This document shows, in pieces, positions 55,831 to 63,793 of a stretch of 64,000 nt of DNA. Position 1 is the first letter of the stretch. Every line of letters starts with the position of its first letter. Made by a program: the position numbers and the translations under genes. The notes below the pieces were generated by a model, which was given only the letters and a program-made list of their open reading frames with translations, did no database searches and was not told the DNA's origin. Origin of the DNA: an uncultured Actinomycetes bacterium (GTDB lineage Bacteria > Actinomycetota > Actinomycetes > Streptosporangiales > Streptosporangiaceae); contig CAWIMG010000021.1 of the NCBI GenBank assembly GCA_963837105.1, forward strand, positions 1 through 64,000, written 5' to 3'.

Positions 55831-55983
55831 CGGGCCACCCTACCCGCCAGGGCCGGTCGTGCCCACCACGGCGGCGAGGCCCAACTGTGGCCTGGCCGCG
55901 GCCGCCGGGCGACAACCGGAGCGCTCTGACCGACGTCATAAGTGTCAGTTGGCTCATGGAGCCACCCAGCACGAGGGACCCCG

Positions 55984-56604
55984 ATGACTGCATTCGCACG
56001 CACCGCCCGGCACCTGACCGTGGCCGCCAGTCTCAGCTTCGCCGCGGCACTGGCCGCTGGCTGCGGCTCCAGCCCGAGCCCCGCCCCCACCCATACGGTC
56101 ACCATCACCCCGCACGCCTCGGCCAGTTCGCCCAGCGCGGCGCCCGCGAGCAGCACGGCGGCACCGTCCTCCCAGGCGTGCGCGACCAGTTCGCTCGGGG
56201 TCAAGCTCGGCCTGAGCCAGGGCGCGGCCGGCAGTGTCTACCAGGCGATCGATTTCACCAACACCTCGAGCGTGACCTGCACGCTCTACGGCTACCCAGG
56301 GGTCTCGGCCGGGAACGGGCAGCCGTTCACCCAGGTGGGCCTGGCGGCCTCGGAGACGCCGACCCCGCCGCGGAAATTGGTGACCCTGGCCCCCGGCGGG
56401 GTGGCCAACGCGCTGCTGCGGGTGGTGGACGCGGGCAATTACCCGCCGAACAAGTGCGCCATGGTGCCGACGAAATCGCTGCGGATCTTCCCGCCGAACC
56501 AGACCGTTCCGGTCTACCTGCACTACAGCACCCAGATGTGCGGCAAGCCGGTGCAGACCATGTCGGTCAGTGTGGTCCAGCCGGGCAGCGGCGGCAACGC
56601 CTGA
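55984..56604 (+). CDS. DUF4232 lipoprotein
   Basis: Lipobox LAAGC; DUF4232 pattern C..S.L...G..G....I.FTNTS...CTLYGYPGV. Confidence 0.65.
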   Translation: MTAFARTARHLTVAASLSFAAALAAGCGSSPSPAPTHTVTITPHASASSPSAAPASSTAAPSSQACATSSLGVKLGLSQGAAGSVYQAIDFTNTSSVTCTLYGYPGVSAGNGQPFTQVGLAASETPTPPRKLVTLAPGGVANALLRVVDAGNYPPNKCAMVPTKSLRIFPPNQTVPVYLHYSTQMCGKPVQTMSVSVVQPGSGGNA

Positions 56605-56628: not shown

Positions 56629-58969
56629 TCAGTTCCCGCGGATGGCTGAGGCGAACGTGACCACGTAGTCCTCTTGGGTGATGGTCTCCAGCGCGCGGGG
56701 GCCGCGTGCGGTCCGGACTGCCGCGATGGCTGCTTCCGCCGGCATCCCGCCAGCGACGAGGAAGCATGCGGCGATCGTTCCGCTGCGGCCGAGCCCGCCC
56801 ATGCAGGTCACTACCACTGCCTCGCCTCGCTCCGTTCCCTGGCGGCACCACCGCACGAGATCGATGGCGTCGGCGACATCGGGGGTGCCCTGGTCGGGGA
56901 CGGGGAGACGGCGGTAGGTGAGGCCGGCGGCCAGGGCGCGGGGGCCGAGGTCGGGGACGCCCACCCAGCCGAGCTCGGAGTCGGTCAGCAGGCTCAGGAG
57001 CCGGGTGACCCCCTCGGCCCGGAGCTGGGCCAGATCGGCGCCCAGGTCGCGGCCCCGGTCGCGGCGGCCGGGGCACAGGGTGATGCCGAGCCTGCCCGCG
57101 CCGGTCAGGCCCGGTTCAATCCAGCCCACCCGCAGGGCGAGTCCGGCTTCGACGGTGCGGGTGATCTGCTCGGCGAGCGAGCAGGCGGCCGCCAGCGCCG
57201 ACTGCTTCTGGAGCGGGGACGCTTCGGGGAAGCTGAGCGTGTGGGCTGCGTAACGCAGCAGCGCCACCTGGAGCTGCAGCGGGTGCCGGTCTTCCCGGCA
57301 TAGCCGGCCGCCGATCCGGCGCACCACCTGGAGCACCTCCCACGCCCGGAGGAACTGGGGGGAGCGCAGCTCGCCCGGGCGGTCGGGGAGTTCGGCCTGG
57401 AGGTCGGCGACCGATCTGAGGGCGCGGGTGATGGCGAGGGCCTCTCGTAGCTGGGGGGCATTCTCGATGGGCGTCAGCAGGTAGAGCAGGTCGTTCTCGA
57501 ACTTGGCCAGATCTTTCAGCACGTGCCCGGGGGCGGCGTGGAAAAAGTCGATGACCCAGACGTTGTGGTGGGAGTCGATCAGGATGTTGGCAGCGTTGAG
57601 GTCGCCGTGGACGTAGGCCACGTAGTGGTAATCGTGCGCTGGCAGCCGGTGGTGGGCCAGGAAGTCCTCGTAGAACTCGCAGACGTTGGGCAGCGATGTC
57701 CCCCCCGGGGAAGTCGAGCCTCTTCTGGCCCGAGCCAGCCGTGACGGCGGTGACAGCGCTGCGGACGGCCGGCCCAAGCCGGGGAGAGAACTGATAGTGC
57801 TCGAACAGGGGCATCCGCTCGTAGCGGGCCGCCGCGTACAGCGGGCCGAGGACGTCCTCGAACACGTTCCGGACCACGGAAATGATGCGGCGCGTTGCCG
57901 TATCGGCGGCGAACAGCGCCTGCAGCGTCCGGACCTGGCCGTGGCCCATATCGGCGTAGGCGTACTTGAGCCCGGCCCGCTCGCCCAGGTCGGCGAAGCC
58001 GCGGACCCGGGGGGCGTTGTTACCGAGCACGTCCTCGATGTGCTCGAAGGCGGCCCGCTCCTGGGCGATGGCCCGGTTCGGGCCCAGCTTCACCACGGCT
58101 GGCGCCTGGCGGTGCCCCAGCGCGTCCTGACTCGTCGCCCGCCACACCAGCGCCCCTGAGTAGCCACCGGAAATCGGCTCCAGATCCACCTGGGTGCTGT
58201 CCCGGAACAGGTGGGCGACGATGGCGCGATCTGCGGGGCTGAGGGCTACATCGACATTGGCGCCTCCGATCCGGGGCTCGAAACCGGGCGGGTGATGGGG
58301 AAGGGCCAGCTCTGCCCCGGGCCGGAGCCAGTCGGCGAACTCAGCCGGGGAGTCGAAGCAGCGTACGCCGAGGAGCTTCCCGAGCTGGGCCAGGGCGTTG
58401 AAGTGCTGAGCGCGTGAGGCACTTGCGGTCAGGGCGCTGCAGGTCGCCAGCTCATCGATGCCGAGCCTGGTCTTCAGGTCGTAAAGCAGGAAGCTCACCT
58501 TGGCCTCGGTCCACACCCCGACAACGCCCACGCGCAACGGCTCATCGCCATGGGCGTGCCGGATCCGCGCGAGTTGCCGGGCCAGATTCGTCCCCTCAAA
58601 GTCGTTCAGTGTCAGCGAGTCGACGATCCGCTCGTTGGTGGCGGCCATGGCCCGCTCATCCATGCCCAGCACGAGCTGAGCCCCGGCGGAGCCCTTGAGG
58701 CAATGTGGCCCGAATCGCTCCAGATGCTCGCGCTGGGCGGGGTCGCCGGGGTCGTGCCAGTCCCGGATGTGGATGAGGTCGATCGCATCTGGGGCCAGGC
58801 CGCGGGCCCAGTCGATCAGCTGCGCCAGCGGCCCCGCCGACGGCTCAGGCCCAAGCAGGCGGGCCGCTTCGCTATAGCCAACATGCAGCAGGTTCGGCAG
58901 GGGATCGTGCGGGCCGATGGGATCGACAAAGTCGCGCTGAAGGCACTGCGCGATCAGGACCGTGGCCAT
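56629..58969 (-). CDS. Multidomain fusion: Cys-less nicotinamidase/isochorismatase-like domain, APH/CotS-like kinase, CDKN3/dual-specificity phosphatase; apparent frameshift near 57700
   Basis: N-terminus aligns with PncA (VLIAQCLQRDF, IRDWHDPGD...GPHC, VGVVGVWTEAKV). The middle carries a kinase N-lobe (LEPISGGYSGALVWR...AVVKLGPN) and a catalytic loop HGDLNAANILID...VIDF. The C-terminus has the PTP CX5R loop VVVTCMGGLGRSGT. It spans ORFs 57116..59002 and 56629..57777. Confidence 0.55.
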
Positions 58970-59083
58970 GGTCAGGGCACCAGGCAGAAACCACAAGGCC
59001 ACGGGAACTGGCCTAGCGCGGACACCGGCCGGATATTATCACCTCGTTCCGTGGCCGGTTTGGGTGGCGAGTAGGACTGGAAC

Positions 59084-62000
59084 ATGGGGGAGCCGCAGCA
59101 GGCAGGTGCCGCCGCCGCGCCGGGCGAGCAGGCCCCGGCGGGCCGGGCGGGTGTGATTCTGACGCCGGATCAGCGGGTGCGGGTGTTTGTTTCCTCGACG
59201 CTGGGGGAGCTGGCCGAAGAGCGGGCGGCGGCGAGGCGGGCGATCACCCGGCTGCATCTGGTGCCGGTGTGGTATGAGTCCGGGGCGCGCCCGCACCCGC
59301 CGCGGTCGATGTACCGGGCTTATCTGGCGCAGAGCCAGGTGTTTGTGGGCATCTACTGGCAGCGGTACGGGTGGGTGGCGCCGGGGATGGGCATCTCCGG
59401 GCTGGAGGATGAGTACCGGCTGGCGGCGGGCATGCCGATGCTGCTGTACCTCAAGCGGCCTGCCCCCGACCTGGAGCCGCGGCTGGCGGCGTTCCTGGAC
59501 AGCATCCGCGCGGCCGGGACGGTGTCGTACCGGACATTTGCCACGCCACGGGAGCTGGAGCGGCTGCTGGCCGATGACCTGGCCATCTTGTTGAGTGAGA
59601 GTTTTGCGGGCGCGGCGGCCGGCGCCGGGGTGCCGCGTGCGTCGGCAGGTGGGATGAGTGAGCCGGCGGAGCCGGACCTGCCGGCTGGGACGGTGACGTT
59701 CCTGCTGACCGACATTGAGGGGTCGACCCGGCTGTGGGAGACCGTGCCCGACGCGATGGAAGCAGCGCTGGAGGCGCACAACCGGCTGCTCACCAGCGTG
59801 ATCGAGGACCATGGCGGGGTGGTGGTCACCTCGCGGGGGGAGGGGGACAGTTTCTTCGCCGTCTTCCCCAGCGCGGTCGCGGCGGTGGAGGCGGCCGGTG
59901 CGTGCCAGCTGGCGCTCACCTCCGAGCCGTGGCCGGAGGGGGCGGTGCTGCGGGTGCGGATGGGGCTGCACACCGGCGAAGCGCGCTCACCAGGCAGTGA
60001 TCACGTTGACCACGGGCCGGTCAACCGGTGCGCCCGGGTGAAGGCGGCCGGGCACGGCGGGCAGGTGCTGGTCACCAAGACCACCTGCGACCTGGTGGAA
60101 GGCCGATTGGGCGGCGGCCTGGACCTCAAACGCCTCGGCGAGTTCCGGCTCCGCGACCTGGCCCAGCCCGAACTCATCTACCAGCTCACCCACCCCCACC
60201 TCCCCACCGACTTCCCCCCACTCAAGACCATCCATTCCGGCAACATCCCGCTGCGGGCCACCTCGTTCGTGGGACGTGCGGACGAGCTGCACGCGGTCGC
60301 CCAAGCGCTGGCACAGTCGCGGCTGGTGACGCTGACCGGCGTGGGCGGCGTGGGCAAGACCCGGCTATCGATCGAGGTCGCGGGCCGGGCGGTGGGCGAG
60401 TACCCCGATGGCTGCTGGTTCTGCGATCTGGCGCCGGCACGTGACGAGGACACGGTGCTGCGGATTATCGCGGCGTCGCTGGGTGCGGCCCTGCGCCCGG
60501 GCCTGTCCATCGCGGCGAGCATCACCGAGCACTGCCAGGCGCGTCAGATGCTGGTGGTTCTCGACAACTGTGAGCAGGTGCTCGACCCCGCTGCGCAGAT
60601 CGCGGGCGCCGTGCTCCGGGAATGCCCCGGGGTCCGCATTCTGGCGACGAGCCGTCAGGCTCTCGACATCGATGGCGAGCAGGTCTTCGCGGTCGGGACT
60701 CTGTCGGTCCCTCAGCCCGTCACTACGGCCGAGCGCATCGCGATGAGCGATGCGGTGCGCCTGTTTGCCGACCGTGCCGCCGCTGCCCGGCGGGGGTTCC
60801 AGCTCGATGAAGGTAGTGCGCAGGCCGCGGCCGAGATCACCCGGCGGCTGGACGGCATCCCGCTGGCGATAGAGCTGGCGGCGGCACGCGCGGCCGTGTT
60901 GCCGGTTCCCAGGATCGCTGCTCTCCTGGACGAGCGGTTCCAGCTGCTTACCGGTGGCCGGCGGAGCGCGCCGGAGCGTCATCAGACCCTGCGCGCCACG
61001 ATCGACTGGTCGTACAGTCTGCTGACCGGCGATGAACAGCGGGTGTTTGACTGCCTCGCCGTGTTCACGGGCTCATTCGACCTCGACGCCGTAGCGGCCG
61101 TCACCGGGGCAGCCCCCGGGGCATGGGTCGTTATCGACACGCTGGCGGCTCTGGTGTCGAAGTCTATGGTCGTACCCGACCAGAGCCACGGGGCCGAGGC
61201 GCGGTACCGGCTGCTGGAGACGCTGCGCCAGTATGCGCTCGAGAGGTTGCGGCAGCGTGGCGAACTGGACCTGGTGCAGCGCCGCCACGCGCAACACTTC
61301 GCGGCGTTTGCCCAGCAAGCTGGCACCGCGCTGCTCGGGCCCGACGAATTGGCATGGCGGCCGAGGTTGTCTGCCGAGCAGGACAATCTCCGCGCGGCCG
61401 TGCAGTGGGCCCTCGGCTCGGACTCACCTGATGACGGCGAGTCCGCCCTGGTTATCGCGGCCTCACTGGCAGCCTATGCCAGCTTCGATACGACTGGGGG
61501 ACTCGCCAGCCTGGTGGTGCAAGCCGTCGAGCGGGCGCGCGCCTCGTCACTGGCACAGCGGGTCTTGATTCTCGGAGCCGCGGCTTTTCATGCTTTCCAG
61601 GTCCGCGGCGACGTTCAGCTTTCTGAGCAGCTGGCGCGTGACGCTCTGCGTGATGGGGTCACCCCTGAGACCCCGGGCACGCAGGCATATGCCGCCTTGA
61701 TCCTGAGTCAGATCTTTACCGGCCGGCTGCCGGAAGCACAGGCAAACCTGCGCGAAGCGCTGCAGGCAACCGCGCAGGCTGGGGTAGACGATCGCCCACG
61801 TGCATGGATGCTGCAAACCTCGGCGGCAGTACGCGCCATCATGGGGGACATAGAAGATGCGCGGGAGAGCGCTGATGGCGCTGTTGCCCTAGCGCGCAGG
61901 ATTGGCAGTCCGTCCGAGCTGGCCGCGGCCCTGTGGACGGCGAGCCTGACCAGGGTTCGCGACGAGCCGGACGAGGCACTCGCGTTCGCGGACGAGTCAA

Positions 62001-62458
62001 TCGCGCTCACCCGGGCGGGCGCGAGCGGCTCGGTGCTGGGGCACCTGCTCCCGATCCGCGCTCAGCTGGGGGCAGCGAACGGCGACGCTGCCGGTGCCGT
62101 GCGCGACCTCCGCGAAGCCCTCACCTACACCCTGGACACGGGCGACAAGGTGATGCTGATGGTGGCGTTCGACCGCGGCATCAGCGTCTTCCACTTCCTG
62201 GGCCTTGCCGAACCAGCGGCCGTCCTGGCCGGAGTGGTGCTCCGTGGGCCACTTGCCGCGCTGAGCATCCTGCCGCAGGCGGAACGGCGCGACCGTGCAG
62301 TCCTTCTTGATCATGTAAGGGAACTCATCGGTGGCGACACCTACGAGCGCGACCTGACGCAGGGTGCGGCCCTGAGCGATGACGAAGTGGTGGCATACGC
62401 CCTTGAGCAGCTCGACATCGCGGAGAGCAGGAACCCGGCACCCGCTCCCGGCACCTGA
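59084..62458 (+). CDS. DUF4062 / class III adenylyl-guanylyl cyclase / NB-ARC (STAND) ATPase / TPR-repeat protein
   Basis: DUF4062 (RVFVSSTLGELAEER...YWQRYGW...GISGLEDEYRLA), cyclase CHD (VTFLLTDIEGSTRLWE...GEGDSFFAVF...RMGLHTGEA), P-loop GVGGVGKTRL, then a helical/TPR region; intact 1124-aa ORF. Confidence 0.8.
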   Translation: MGEPQQAGAAAAPGEQAPAGRAGVILTPDQRVRVFVSSTLGELAEERAAARRAITRLHLVPVWYESGARPHPPRSMYRAYLAQSQVFVGIYWQRYGWVAPGMGISGLEDEYRLAAGMPMLLYLKRPAPDLEPRLAAFLDSIRAAGTVSYRTFATPRELERLLADDLAILLSESFAGAAAGAGVPRASAGGMSEPAEPDLPAGTVTFLLTDIEGSTRLWETVPDAMEAALEAHNRLLTSVIEDHGGVVVTSRGEGDSFFAVFPSAVAAVEAAGACQLALTSEPWPEGAVLRVRMGLHTGEARSPGSDHVDHGPVNRCARVKAAGHGGQVLVTKTTCDLVEGRLGGGLDLKRLGEFRLRDLAQPELIYQLTHPHLPTDFPPLKTIHSGNIPLRATSFVGRADELHAVAQALAQSRLVTLTGVGGVGKTRLSIEVAGRAVGEYPDGCWFCDLAPARDEDTVLRIIAASLGAALRPGLSIAASITEHCQARQMLVVLDNCEQVLDPAAQIAGAVLRECPGVRILATSRQALDIDGEQVFAVGTLSVPQPVTTAERIAMSDAVRLFADRAAAARRGFQLDEGSAQAAAEITRRLDGIPLAIELAAARAAVLPVPRIAALLDERFQLLTGGRRSAPERHQTLRATIDWSYSLLTGDEQRVFDCLAVFTGSFDLDAVAAVTGAAPGAWVVIDTLAALVSKSMVVPDQSHGAEARYRLLETLRQYALERLRQRGELDLVQRRHAQHFAAFAQQAGTALLGPDELAWRPRLSAEQDNLRAAVQWALGSDSPDDGESALVIAASLAAYASFDTTGGLASLVVQAVERARASSLAQRVLILGAAAFHAFQVRGDVQLSEQLARDALRDGVTPETPGTQAYAALILSQIFTGRLPEAQANLREALQATAQAGVDDRPRAWMLQTSAAVRAIMGDIEDARESADGAVALARRIGSPSELAAALWTASLTRVRDEPDEALAFADESIALTRAGASGSVLGHLLPIRAQLGAANGDAAGAVRDLREALTYTLDTGDKVMLMVAFDRGISVFHFLGLAEPAAVLAGVVLRGPLAALSILPQAERRDRAVLLDHVRELIGGDTYERDLTQGAALSDDEVVAYALEQLDIAESRNPAPAPGT

Positions 62459-62527: not shown

Positions 62528-63793
62528 TCACACCGCCTCGACGTGAGCCTGCAAGCCGGAGGCCGTTTGGCTTAGGGCTGCCGACACCGCCGCCACCACG
62601 TCGGCACCGGTGGGCGGGTGGAGGCCAGCGGCGAAGGCGGCCAGTTCGTCGAGGCGCTCAGCGAAGCGGAGCCAGGCCGAGCGGCGGTGCGGGAGCAGGA
62701 AGCTGGCCCGGTAGGGGAGCTGGAAGTTGGCTCCCGCCGTGACACCAGGGCGGTCGGGTCCCACTGGCAGGCGGGCGAGCAGGAGGCCGAGCGGCTTGAT
62801 GGCCCGGAACATCAGGCCGACGGCGGTATGGGCCAGGACCTGGCGCTGGGCGGGCGTCTCATGACCGAAAGCGAAGTAGCGCGCGATCATCTGCAGAATA
62901 AGCTCATACACCGCGTTGAACAGGTCGGAACACCCACCGGCGGCGGGGTCGGTGATGTAGACCTCCGGTTCGATCCCCTCCACCGCCCTCATCGCGGCGG
63001 CGACGACCGGGTAGGCGGGCTCGAAGCCCGGATCCTGCTTGCGCATCGCCCGGTAGTCATCGAGCACCGCGAGGAAGCGGCCGTAATGGGCATTTGCCCG
63101 GTCCCCCCTCGCCCCTTCCCCCTGCTCGACGATGCGCTCGATGGCCCGGTTGGTGCCATCCAGGTCGGTGATGGGGTGAAGGTCAGGCCAGCCGAAGGTC
63201 GTCTCGTCAGCCTGCTGGAACGCCGGGCCGATGAACAACCGGTCCGCGCCGAGCTTGTCCGCCAGGTGGCCGAAACCCCGCTCAATGGAGCGGTACAGGT
63301 GACCCACCGTGGCGAAATCCTGGCCCCGCGGAATGATCTCCTCTGGCCTCATCGGCTGGAGCGGCAGCCCGGCGGGCTGGAAGCCCGCCGCATCGGCGCC
63401 CTTCACCCCTTCCGGCCGCTCCAGGTACACAAAGTGCTCCAGCGCCGCCTCGCTGAACGGGAGCAGCCGCACCTGCACCCCGGGCGGGTAGCCCCTCGCC
63501 TGGTGCGGCATGTGGGGCCGGCTCACGTAGGGTGCGGACCCGACCGCGGTGAGCAGGTTCTGGACCACGGCCCAATGCAGCATCTCCTCGCGGGCGATGG
63601 TGAGGATCATTTTGCGCCAGCGCTCGACGGCCGCCACCTGATCCTGCCGGAGGCCGGGACCCGCAGTGCTCTTGAGACTGAACGCGGCGTAGAGGTACTC
63701 GCACATCAGGCCATGCTCAAGCTCAGCAGCCTGGGACAGAAGATACGTCAGCTCCTTGCGGTCCTCCACCACGATGGCCGGCTCGCTCACCAT
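62528..63793 (-). CDS. Ferritin-like (PF12902 / VioB N-terminal type) domain protein
   Basis: AELEHGLMCEYLYAAFSL...EEMLHWAVVQNLL, a di-metal four-helix-bundle signature; 421 aa. Confidence 0.65.
   Translation of the reverse strand: MVSEPAIVVEDRKELTYLLSQAAELEHGLMCEYLYAAFSLKSTAGPGLRQDQVAAVERWRKMILTIAREEMLHWAVVQNLLTAVGSAPYVSRPHMPHQARGYPPGVQVRLLPFSEAALEHFVYLERPEGVKGADAAGFQPAGLPLQPMRPEEIIPRGQDFATVGHLYRSIERGFGHLADKLGADRLFIGPAFQQADETTFGWPDLHPITDLDGTNRAIERIVEQGEGARGDRANAHYGRFLAVLDDYRAMRKQDPGFEPAYPVVAAAMRAVEGIEPEVYITDPAAGGCSDLFNAVYELILQMIARYFAFGHETPAQRQVLAHTAVGLMFRAIKPLGLLLARLPVGPDRPGVTAGANFQLPYRASFLLPHRRSAWLRFAERLDELAAFAAGLHPPTGADVVAAVSAALSQTASGLQAHVEAV

Follow-up and report, generated by a model that had tools for sequence, protein, structure and literature searches.

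Is a nicotinamidase-like domain that has a lysine in place of its nucleophilic cysteine a sensor, an enzyme of a new kind or a mere scaffold? The question arises at a locus of an uncultured Streptosporangiaceae bacterium (assembly GCA_963837105.1, contig CAWIMG010000021.1), in a stretch of 64,000 nucleotides that is called the window here. An earlier note on this DNA had placed the domain at 58480 to 58969 and had suggested that it is a non-catalytic, ligand-binding sensor. The domain does lie there on the minus strand, but that span covers only its residues 1-163. As listed below, the whole domain is longer and is the first of three in one protein.

56629 to 58969, minus strand: three-domain gene of about 779 aa (nicotinamidase-like domain, TCAD9 kinase and DSP phosphatase), from ORFs and Pfam
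58325 to 58969, minus strand: nicotinamidase-derived domain with a rewired active site, residues 1-215, from Pfam, profile alignments and an AlphaFold model
57169 to 58204, minus strand: TCAD9 (PF19974), an APH-like kinase domain with the frameshift inside; Pfam 94.8 and 112 bits (cut-off 40)
57700 to 57706, minus strand: run of seven G residues, the source of the +1 frameshift, from alignment with relatives
56632 to 57135, minus strand: dual-specificity (DSP/PTP-type) phosphatase domain; Tc-R-P 47.6, PTP-SAK 45.3 and CDKN3 40.5 bits
59084 to 62458, plus strand: divergent neighbour of 1124 aa with DUF4062/NIR, nucleotide cyclase, STAND NTPase and TPR repeats, from Pfam
about 59180 to 59425, plus strand: DUF4062/NIR domain, a predicted NADase; Pfam 66.7 bits (cut-off 24.7)

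In the window, the three-domain gene is made up of two ORFs (57116 to 58969 and 56629 to 57777) that are split by the +1 frameshift. The first one contains the previously flagged span and starts with an ATG at 58969; since orthologues open with MATVLITQCLQ or MTTVLITQ, this ATG was chosen and not the GTG upstream at 59002. It has an apparent length of 617 aa and runs out into Pro/Arg-rich nonsense, and the protein resumes in the other frame in the second ORF. The Pfam match to TCAD9 is divided as well, with profile positions 4-173 in one ORF and 268-428 in the other. All of the 20 aligned related loci have one base fewer at the G run, and deletion of one G gives a 779-aa protein that is collinear with the intact orthologues of about 780 aa. 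The frameshifted gene in the window is either a homopolymer mis-assembly or a recent pseudogene. Similar truncations were seen in several related long-read MAG loci. Long N-terminal extensions at some loci were rejected as open-frame junk of high-GC DNA, the true starts being just before VLITQCLQ.

The N-terminal domain has an isochorismatase-like alpha/beta fold. Its score for PF00857 is 24.1 bits, just under the gathering cut-off of 27. With a profile built from 43 family members, the solved nicotinamidases of the PDB are found at E values of 1e-6 to 1e-7, and the AlphaFold model of the domain is confident (pLDDT 94). Apart from the low Pfam score, it differs from PncA in an insertion of about 30 residues after strand 1 and in never standing alone, being fused to a kinase. 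In nicotinamidases, the free ring nitrogen of the substrate is at the metal, directly or via a metal-bound water, and the ring is held between two aromatic residues (PMC3025910). Both parts of this pocket are matched in the domain. The metal ligands, which the earlier note had recognised by eye, were recovered by HMMER and hhalign, in which RDWHD and PHC pair with Asp49, His51 and His71 of PncA. The two ring-stacking residues Phe13 and Trp68 have their aligned counterparts in Phe14 and Phe86, positions at which almost every relative has Phe or Tyr. A fourth metal ligand is probably His82, which does not vary in 60 loci and, in the wider family, is either His or Glu. The codons concerned, with those of two replaced catalytic residues, are as follows.

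58943 to 58945, minus strand: Cys9, at the position of the catalytic Asp8 of PncA, from global hhalign
58703 to 58762, minus strand: metal-ligand segment, from alignment to PncA, with Phe86 inside
58760 to 58762, minus strand: Asp70, metal ligand by alignment
58754 to 58756, minus strand: His72, metal ligand by alignment
58724 to 58726, minus strand: His82, likely fourth metal ligand
58703 to 58705, minus strand: His89, metal ligand by alignment
58499 to 58501, minus strand: Lys157 in the motif GVWTEAKV, at the position of the nucleophilic Cys138 of PncA, from HMMER and hhalign

What has become of the catalytic residues? GVWTEAKV aligns with the G(V/I)xTDxCV of real nicotinamidases in both HMMER and hhalign, and the Cys-to-Lys replacement that had been read in VWTEAKV is confirmed by these profile alignments. 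The Asp of QRDF had been taken for the catalytic one, and this was a misassignment: in the global profile alignment, it is Asp13 and pairs with the non-catalytic Asp12 of PncA, and the catalytic Asp8 falls on Cys9, the strand-1 motif being C-L-Q-x-D-F where nicotinamidases have D-x-Q-x-D-F. A MAFFT alignment that put Asp8 on Gln8 by means of a one-residue gap at the N-terminus was overruled by the global profile alignment. The catalytic Lys96 falls on either Asp117 or Ser118, as the alignment methods differ, and the family has a Lys at neither. The small oxyanion-hole residue Ala134, which in PncA follows a cis-peptide, is replaced by an invariant Trp153, and His137 by Ala156. For PncA itself, it is known that C138A and K96Q abolish activity and that A134V nearly does so (PMC3025910). 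The Cys-less isochorismatases EntB and PhzD present the opposite case; they keep the catalytic Asp (Asp38 in PhzD) and the Lys without a metal site, whereas the present domain has lost the Asp and the Lys and has kept the metal site. Thus, on the residue mapping (Cys9, Asp117/Ser118, Lys157), the Asp-Lys-Cys triad is replaced altogether, while the metal site and the ring cage remain. It is well supported by these alignments that the domain is not a canonical Cys amidase. Judged by residues, it is clearly derived from nicotinamidases, yet it does not qualify as one in four features (nucleophile, catalytic Asp, catalytic Lys and oxyanion hole). In this sense the earlier idea of a non-catalytic sensor was half right: its rejection of a canonical amidase is well supported, and the sensor role is plausible.

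An HMMER search of 1.84 billion representative sequences gave 557 clusters at E <= 1e-3, of which 142 reach E <= 1e-30. The family is spread over Actinomycetota, Myxococcota and Planctomycetota, and no viral homologues were found in IMG/VR. Could the lysine be a local artefact, that is, a sequencing error or the private mutation of a decaying gene? The frameshift at the G run would fit such an origin, as it marks either an error-prone assembly or a pseudogene. Nevertheless, the chance of this is negligible. Of about 200 relatives with sequence at this site, 182 have Lys at position 157 and none has Cys, which also answers the earlier concern that orthologues might retain the cysteine. W153, T154, A156 and K157 are invariant in 43 aligned homologues with identity down to 43%. 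The whole GVWTEAKV motif, together with C9, D70, H72, H82, H89, Phe14 and Phe86, does not vary among 60 full-length proteins that were taken from genome loci of several phyla, an invariance to be read with the caveat that these loci were picked with motifs from this very domain. A sequencing error is ruled out by the family-wide invariance, and the alignments indicate that Cys-to-Lys is a trait of the family.

The remaining two domains look like enzymes. TCAD9 has Lys294 (the beta-3 Lys in VVK), a catalytic loop HGDLNAAN and an IDF motif, and VVK, HGDLNxxN and IDF are conserved across orthologues. The kinase is of a small-molecule type (APH-like) and, as far as its motifs tell, apparently active. 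The scores of the phosphatase domain all exceed their cut-offs; it has a CX5R loop (CMGGLGRSG), which is kept in most orthologues, and it is assigned to the DSP/PTP type. In nearly all members the nicotinamidase-like domain precedes TCAD9 in the same polypeptide, and in most the DSP phosphatase comes next. There are variants without the phosphatase, and others add an HD, a Ser/Thr kinase, a carbohydrate-binding module (CBM) or a CH domain. These full-length architectures were taken from genome loci and from the representative library; a word-indexed protein search gave fragments of 394 aa or less. None of the models of PADLOC-DB v2.0.0 gave a significant hit to the three-domain protein.

The reading that I put forward, tentatively and at a little below an even chance, is that the domain is a metal-dependent module that binds nicotinamide or nicotinate and controls the kinase/phosphatase pair. 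These are NAD+ breakdown products whose unsubstituted ring nitrogen can reach the metal, and the occupancy of the pocket would set the balance of kinase versus phosphatase activity. This reading is supported by the retained metal ligands and ring cage and by the fusion of the domain in front of a kinase that seems active and, in most members, of a phosphatase too. AceK and PFK-2/FBPase-2 are ligand-controlled bifunctional kinase/phosphatases, in which one polypeptide combines two opposing phosphoryl transfers with an element that binds a small molecule. They are an analogy to the three-domain protein only, homology being absent. What the data show are the fold, the replaced residues with their conservation, the fusion and the neighbouring genes; I infer the ligand, the coupling and the immune role discussed below, and the strength of the proposal is limited because the residues that replaced the triad are not neutral.

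Position 9 is Cys in 181 relatives, Ser in 10 and another residue in nine. Such a distribution is characteristic of a nucleophile and not of a ligand contact, and it counts against the binding reading. All ten Ser9 sequences retain Lys157 and the metal ligands. Sequences without Lys157 mostly lack Cys9 and the metal ligands as well, and a small degenerate subset has lost all of these together. Where Lys96 used to be, there is now a small residue (118 is Ser or Ala), and hardly any variation occurs at Glu/Asp155 and Asp123. Hence the domain might be a rewired hydrolase, in which Cys9 or Ser9 is a relocated nucleophile, Lys157 fills the space of the old Lys96, and an acid (Glu155 or Asp123, for instance) or the metal completes the site; its activity would be that of an amidase, with nicotinamide or a similar compound as substrate, or some new chemistry. 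The nicotinamidase-like domain is better conserved than the other two, with a mean pairwise identity of 64% (theirs are 55% and 51%) and 27% of near-invariant columns (against 13%). This would fit such an enzyme no less than a sensor, although the comparison is biased since the sequences were selected by this domain. I regard a rewired hydrolase as possible but less likely than the binding module. The oxyanion-hole position is an invariant bulky Trp, and even a Val at Ala134 of PncA nearly abolishes activity. The degenerate subfamily, which lacks the residues in question, is still fused to TCAD9; therefore, the domain has a role that needs no catalysis. Moreover, to my knowledge, there is no precedent for a permuted Cys/Lys triad in the isochorismatase-like superfamily. 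As a separate observation, the near invariance of the replacements (Cys/Ser9 and Lys157) is at odds with a simple dead-enzyme picture, Ser9 resembling a relocated nucleophile that is paired with a Lys.

What then might a nicotinamide-binding module be for? The gene is separated from its divergent neighbour by 114 bp, and the other flanking genes in the window are housekeeping-like. The neighbour also matches NB-ARC/AAA and TPR models, and it can be classed as a DUF4062/NIR-STAND (Avs-like) protein with a predicted NADase. DUF4062, renamed NIR or Swarozyc, was identified as a TIR-like NADase that yields ADP-ribose and nicotinamide, and phage NARP1 reuses both products to defeat the defence (bioRxiv 10.64898/2026.05.01.722283 and 10.64898/2026.09.04.749371). 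Glu108 and Glu110 are invariant in 17 homologous DUF4062 neighbours. The comparison took in 34 loci of the Actinomycetota-type clade, all with at least 70% identity. A DUF4062-STAND-TPR gene adjoins the three-domain gene in 16 of them and a 305-aa CAP12/Pycsar-type TIR gene in 11, so that a predicted NADase gene of either type is adjacent in 27 of the 34. In three more the STAND/TPR gene is cut by a contig end or a frameshift, one locus has neither type, and the remainder are too short to judge. The NADase neighbour is usually less than 700 bp away, in all four relative orientations. The TIR neighbours of the sister loci match CBASS/Pycsar TIR effector models of PADLOC-DB v2.0.0. Outside Actinomycetota, no recurrent neighbour, NADase included, was found in 46 loci of Myxococcota, Planctomycetota and other phyla, and a Pfam scan of 72 flanking ORFs there gave no recurrent neighbour but only a handful of MoxR-type AAA genes.

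For the binding module, nicotinamide is the obvious candidate ligand because the gene adjoins enzymes that release it. In Actinomycetota, the three-domain protein would work beside the adjacent NADase immune gene (DUF4062/NIR-STAND-TPR or CAP12-type TIR) and would report on the cleavage of NAD+ or react to it. Since no recurrent NADase neighbour was present in the 46 loci of other phyla, the NAD+ link may be specific to the clade or a coincidence of defence islands. The same neighbourhood would also make sense of a rewired hydrolase, which could remove nicotinamide so that phages are unable to rebuild NAD+; NARP1 requires nicotinamide and ADP-ribose, and it impairs DUF4062-based defence.

Alternatively, the domain may be a structural pseudoenzyme that serves the kinase as a scaffold or for dimerisation and has no small-molecule ligand, and the adjacency to NADase genes may reflect an insertion hotspot for defence genes. 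There is partial synteny among the actinobacterial loci, in which ferritin-like and alpha/beta-hydrolase genes recur, and such an origin would also agree with the lack of NADase neighbours in other phyla and with the existence of degenerate family members. However, every adjacent defence-type gene bears an NADase domain, in two unrelated architectures and not as a mixture of systems. Moreover, a pure scaffold hardly explains four metal ligands and two ring-stacking aromatic residues that are invariant across phyla. I consider the scaffold and the hotspot improbable.

Is such a protein already known? Kaur et al. (2020, PMC7159879) described 'ternary' conflict systems with TCAD9, and the present family resembles them in a kinase well above the cut-off, in a similar phyletic spread (Actinomycetota, Myxococcota and Planctomycetota) and in a few myxobacterial loci with MoxR-type AAA genes nearby. 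It differs in that most loci are without the MoxR-vWA core. Only 'a few' active APH-like kinases are mentioned in that study, and its main text and one supplementary file contain no mention of an isochorismatase/nicotinamidase-like domain. The main texts of the Iyer 2022 survey of NAD+/ADP-ribose, from the same group, and of two DUF4062 preprints likewise do not connect such a domain with TCAD9 or NADase systems, and a free-text literature search gave no paper tying a nicotinamidase-like domain to NADase defence. TCAD9 itself is a named Pfam family that stems from the work of Kaur et al. VstB of Vesta, an alkaline phosphatase, and MisB of Metis, a HAD phosphatase, are similar in that the gene of an enzyme is tightly linked to that of an NADase effector. 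The DUF4062 preprints report that the accessory phosphatases of DUF4062/NIR systems are dispensable for defence or guard against self-toxicity. The folds and the architecture are unrelated, however; the putative partner here combines a nicotinamidase-like domain, a kinase and a DSP phosphatase.

These results bear on annotation first. The database labels 'nicotinamidase-related amidase', 'isochorismatase family' and 'cysteine hydrolase family' are misleading for these proteins, because from their aligned residues they should be unable to work as Cys amidases. A bolder possibility, of which I am doubtful, is that the family is an unrecognised partner of NADase immunity. Its task would be to sense the nicotinamide that DUF4062/NIR or TIR effectors set free from NAD+, or to destroy it, and the kinase and phosphatase would feed back on the system or modify its products against NAD+ reconstitution by phages; the metal site with a permuted Cys/Lys pair would then be a first in the superfamily. 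The products so modified might be nicotinamide and ADP-ribose. NAD+ depletion is a major theme of bacterial immunity, and DUF4062 was recognised as an NADase only in 2026. The family is a clean case of the repurposing of an enzyme pocket in which the metal- and ring-binding parts were kept. As a conserved neighbour that has a nicotinamide-type pocket together with a kinase/phosphatase pair, it provides a testable handle on how the products of NAD+ cleavage are sensed or managed, and it may have a bearing on how hosts answer the reconstitution of NAD+ by phages.

Family members carry the database names 'nicotinamidase-related amidase', 'isochorismatase family protein', and 'cysteine hydrolase family protein', but despite these amidase or hydrolase names, the catalytic cysteine is present in none of the members so annotated. 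I found a degenerate subfamily of the domain (P0181, P0192, P0193, P0221, P0230, and P0239-P0241) in which the metal ligands, Cys9, and Lys157 have all been lost together. Both of the degenerate members scanned (P0181 and P0192) retain the fusion with the TCAD9 kinase domain, and some proteins of this subfamily are long (800-1270 aa) with unannotated regions. Three other family proteins, P0113, P0163, and P0184, look eukaryotic or bear domains typical of eukaryotes; one of them is a EukProt transcriptome entry, a second contains a calponin-homology domain, and the third contains an AMPK glycogen-binding module.

In the window, the three-domain gene is split by a +1 frameshift at the following site:

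57700..57706, minus strand: G7 run

At this site, all 20 aligned relatives lack one of the bases found here. The frameshift at the G7 run means either that the homopolymer was misassembled or that the gene is a real pseudogene. Truncated ORFs were likewise seen in related loci from long-read MAGs (L005, L007, L014, and L018).

A few myxobacterial or proteobacterial loci (L032, L046, L067, L068, L072, and L080) contain, 3-5 kb upstream, a MoxR-type AAA+ gene together with conserved genes that carry no annotation; these surroundings recall the 'ternary' systems from which the name TCAD9 comes. The genes flanking the window's three-domain gene, and the TIR gene of a related locus, L022, are as follows:

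55942..56604, plus strand: DUF4232 protein gene, immediately downstream of the three-domain gene and on the opposite strand
59084..62458, plus strand: STAND protein gene (NADase neighbour), with DUF4062/NIR NADase and adenylate/guanylate cyclase domains, then NB-ARC and TPR
62528..63793, minus strand: Ferritin-like (PF12902) gene, near the three-domain gene
L022:10459-11376, minus strand: gene of a TIR protein of about 305 aa, with an N-terminal CAP12/Pycsar-type TIR domain

The DUF4232 protein, whose N-terminus looks lipoprotein-like by eye, appears to be unconnected with the nicotinamidase-like domain finding. In the STAND protein, a single chain carries both the NADase and the cyclase, each a potential effector or signalling domain; this long, cyclase-containing form was found in only about three related loci (the window, L001, and L024). 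In L022 and ten sister loci (L002, L005, L012, L015, L016, L018-L021, and L064), the TIR protein takes the place of the STAND protein. Its C-terminal region of about 160 aa has no Pfam match in these loci and could be a ligand-sensing domain. The Ferritin-like gene is again found near the three-domain gene in L008, L012, L013, L019, and L024. Since it recurs with either type of NADase neighbour, it is suggested that these loci share a common chromosomal neighbourhood within which the NADase gene has been exchanged.
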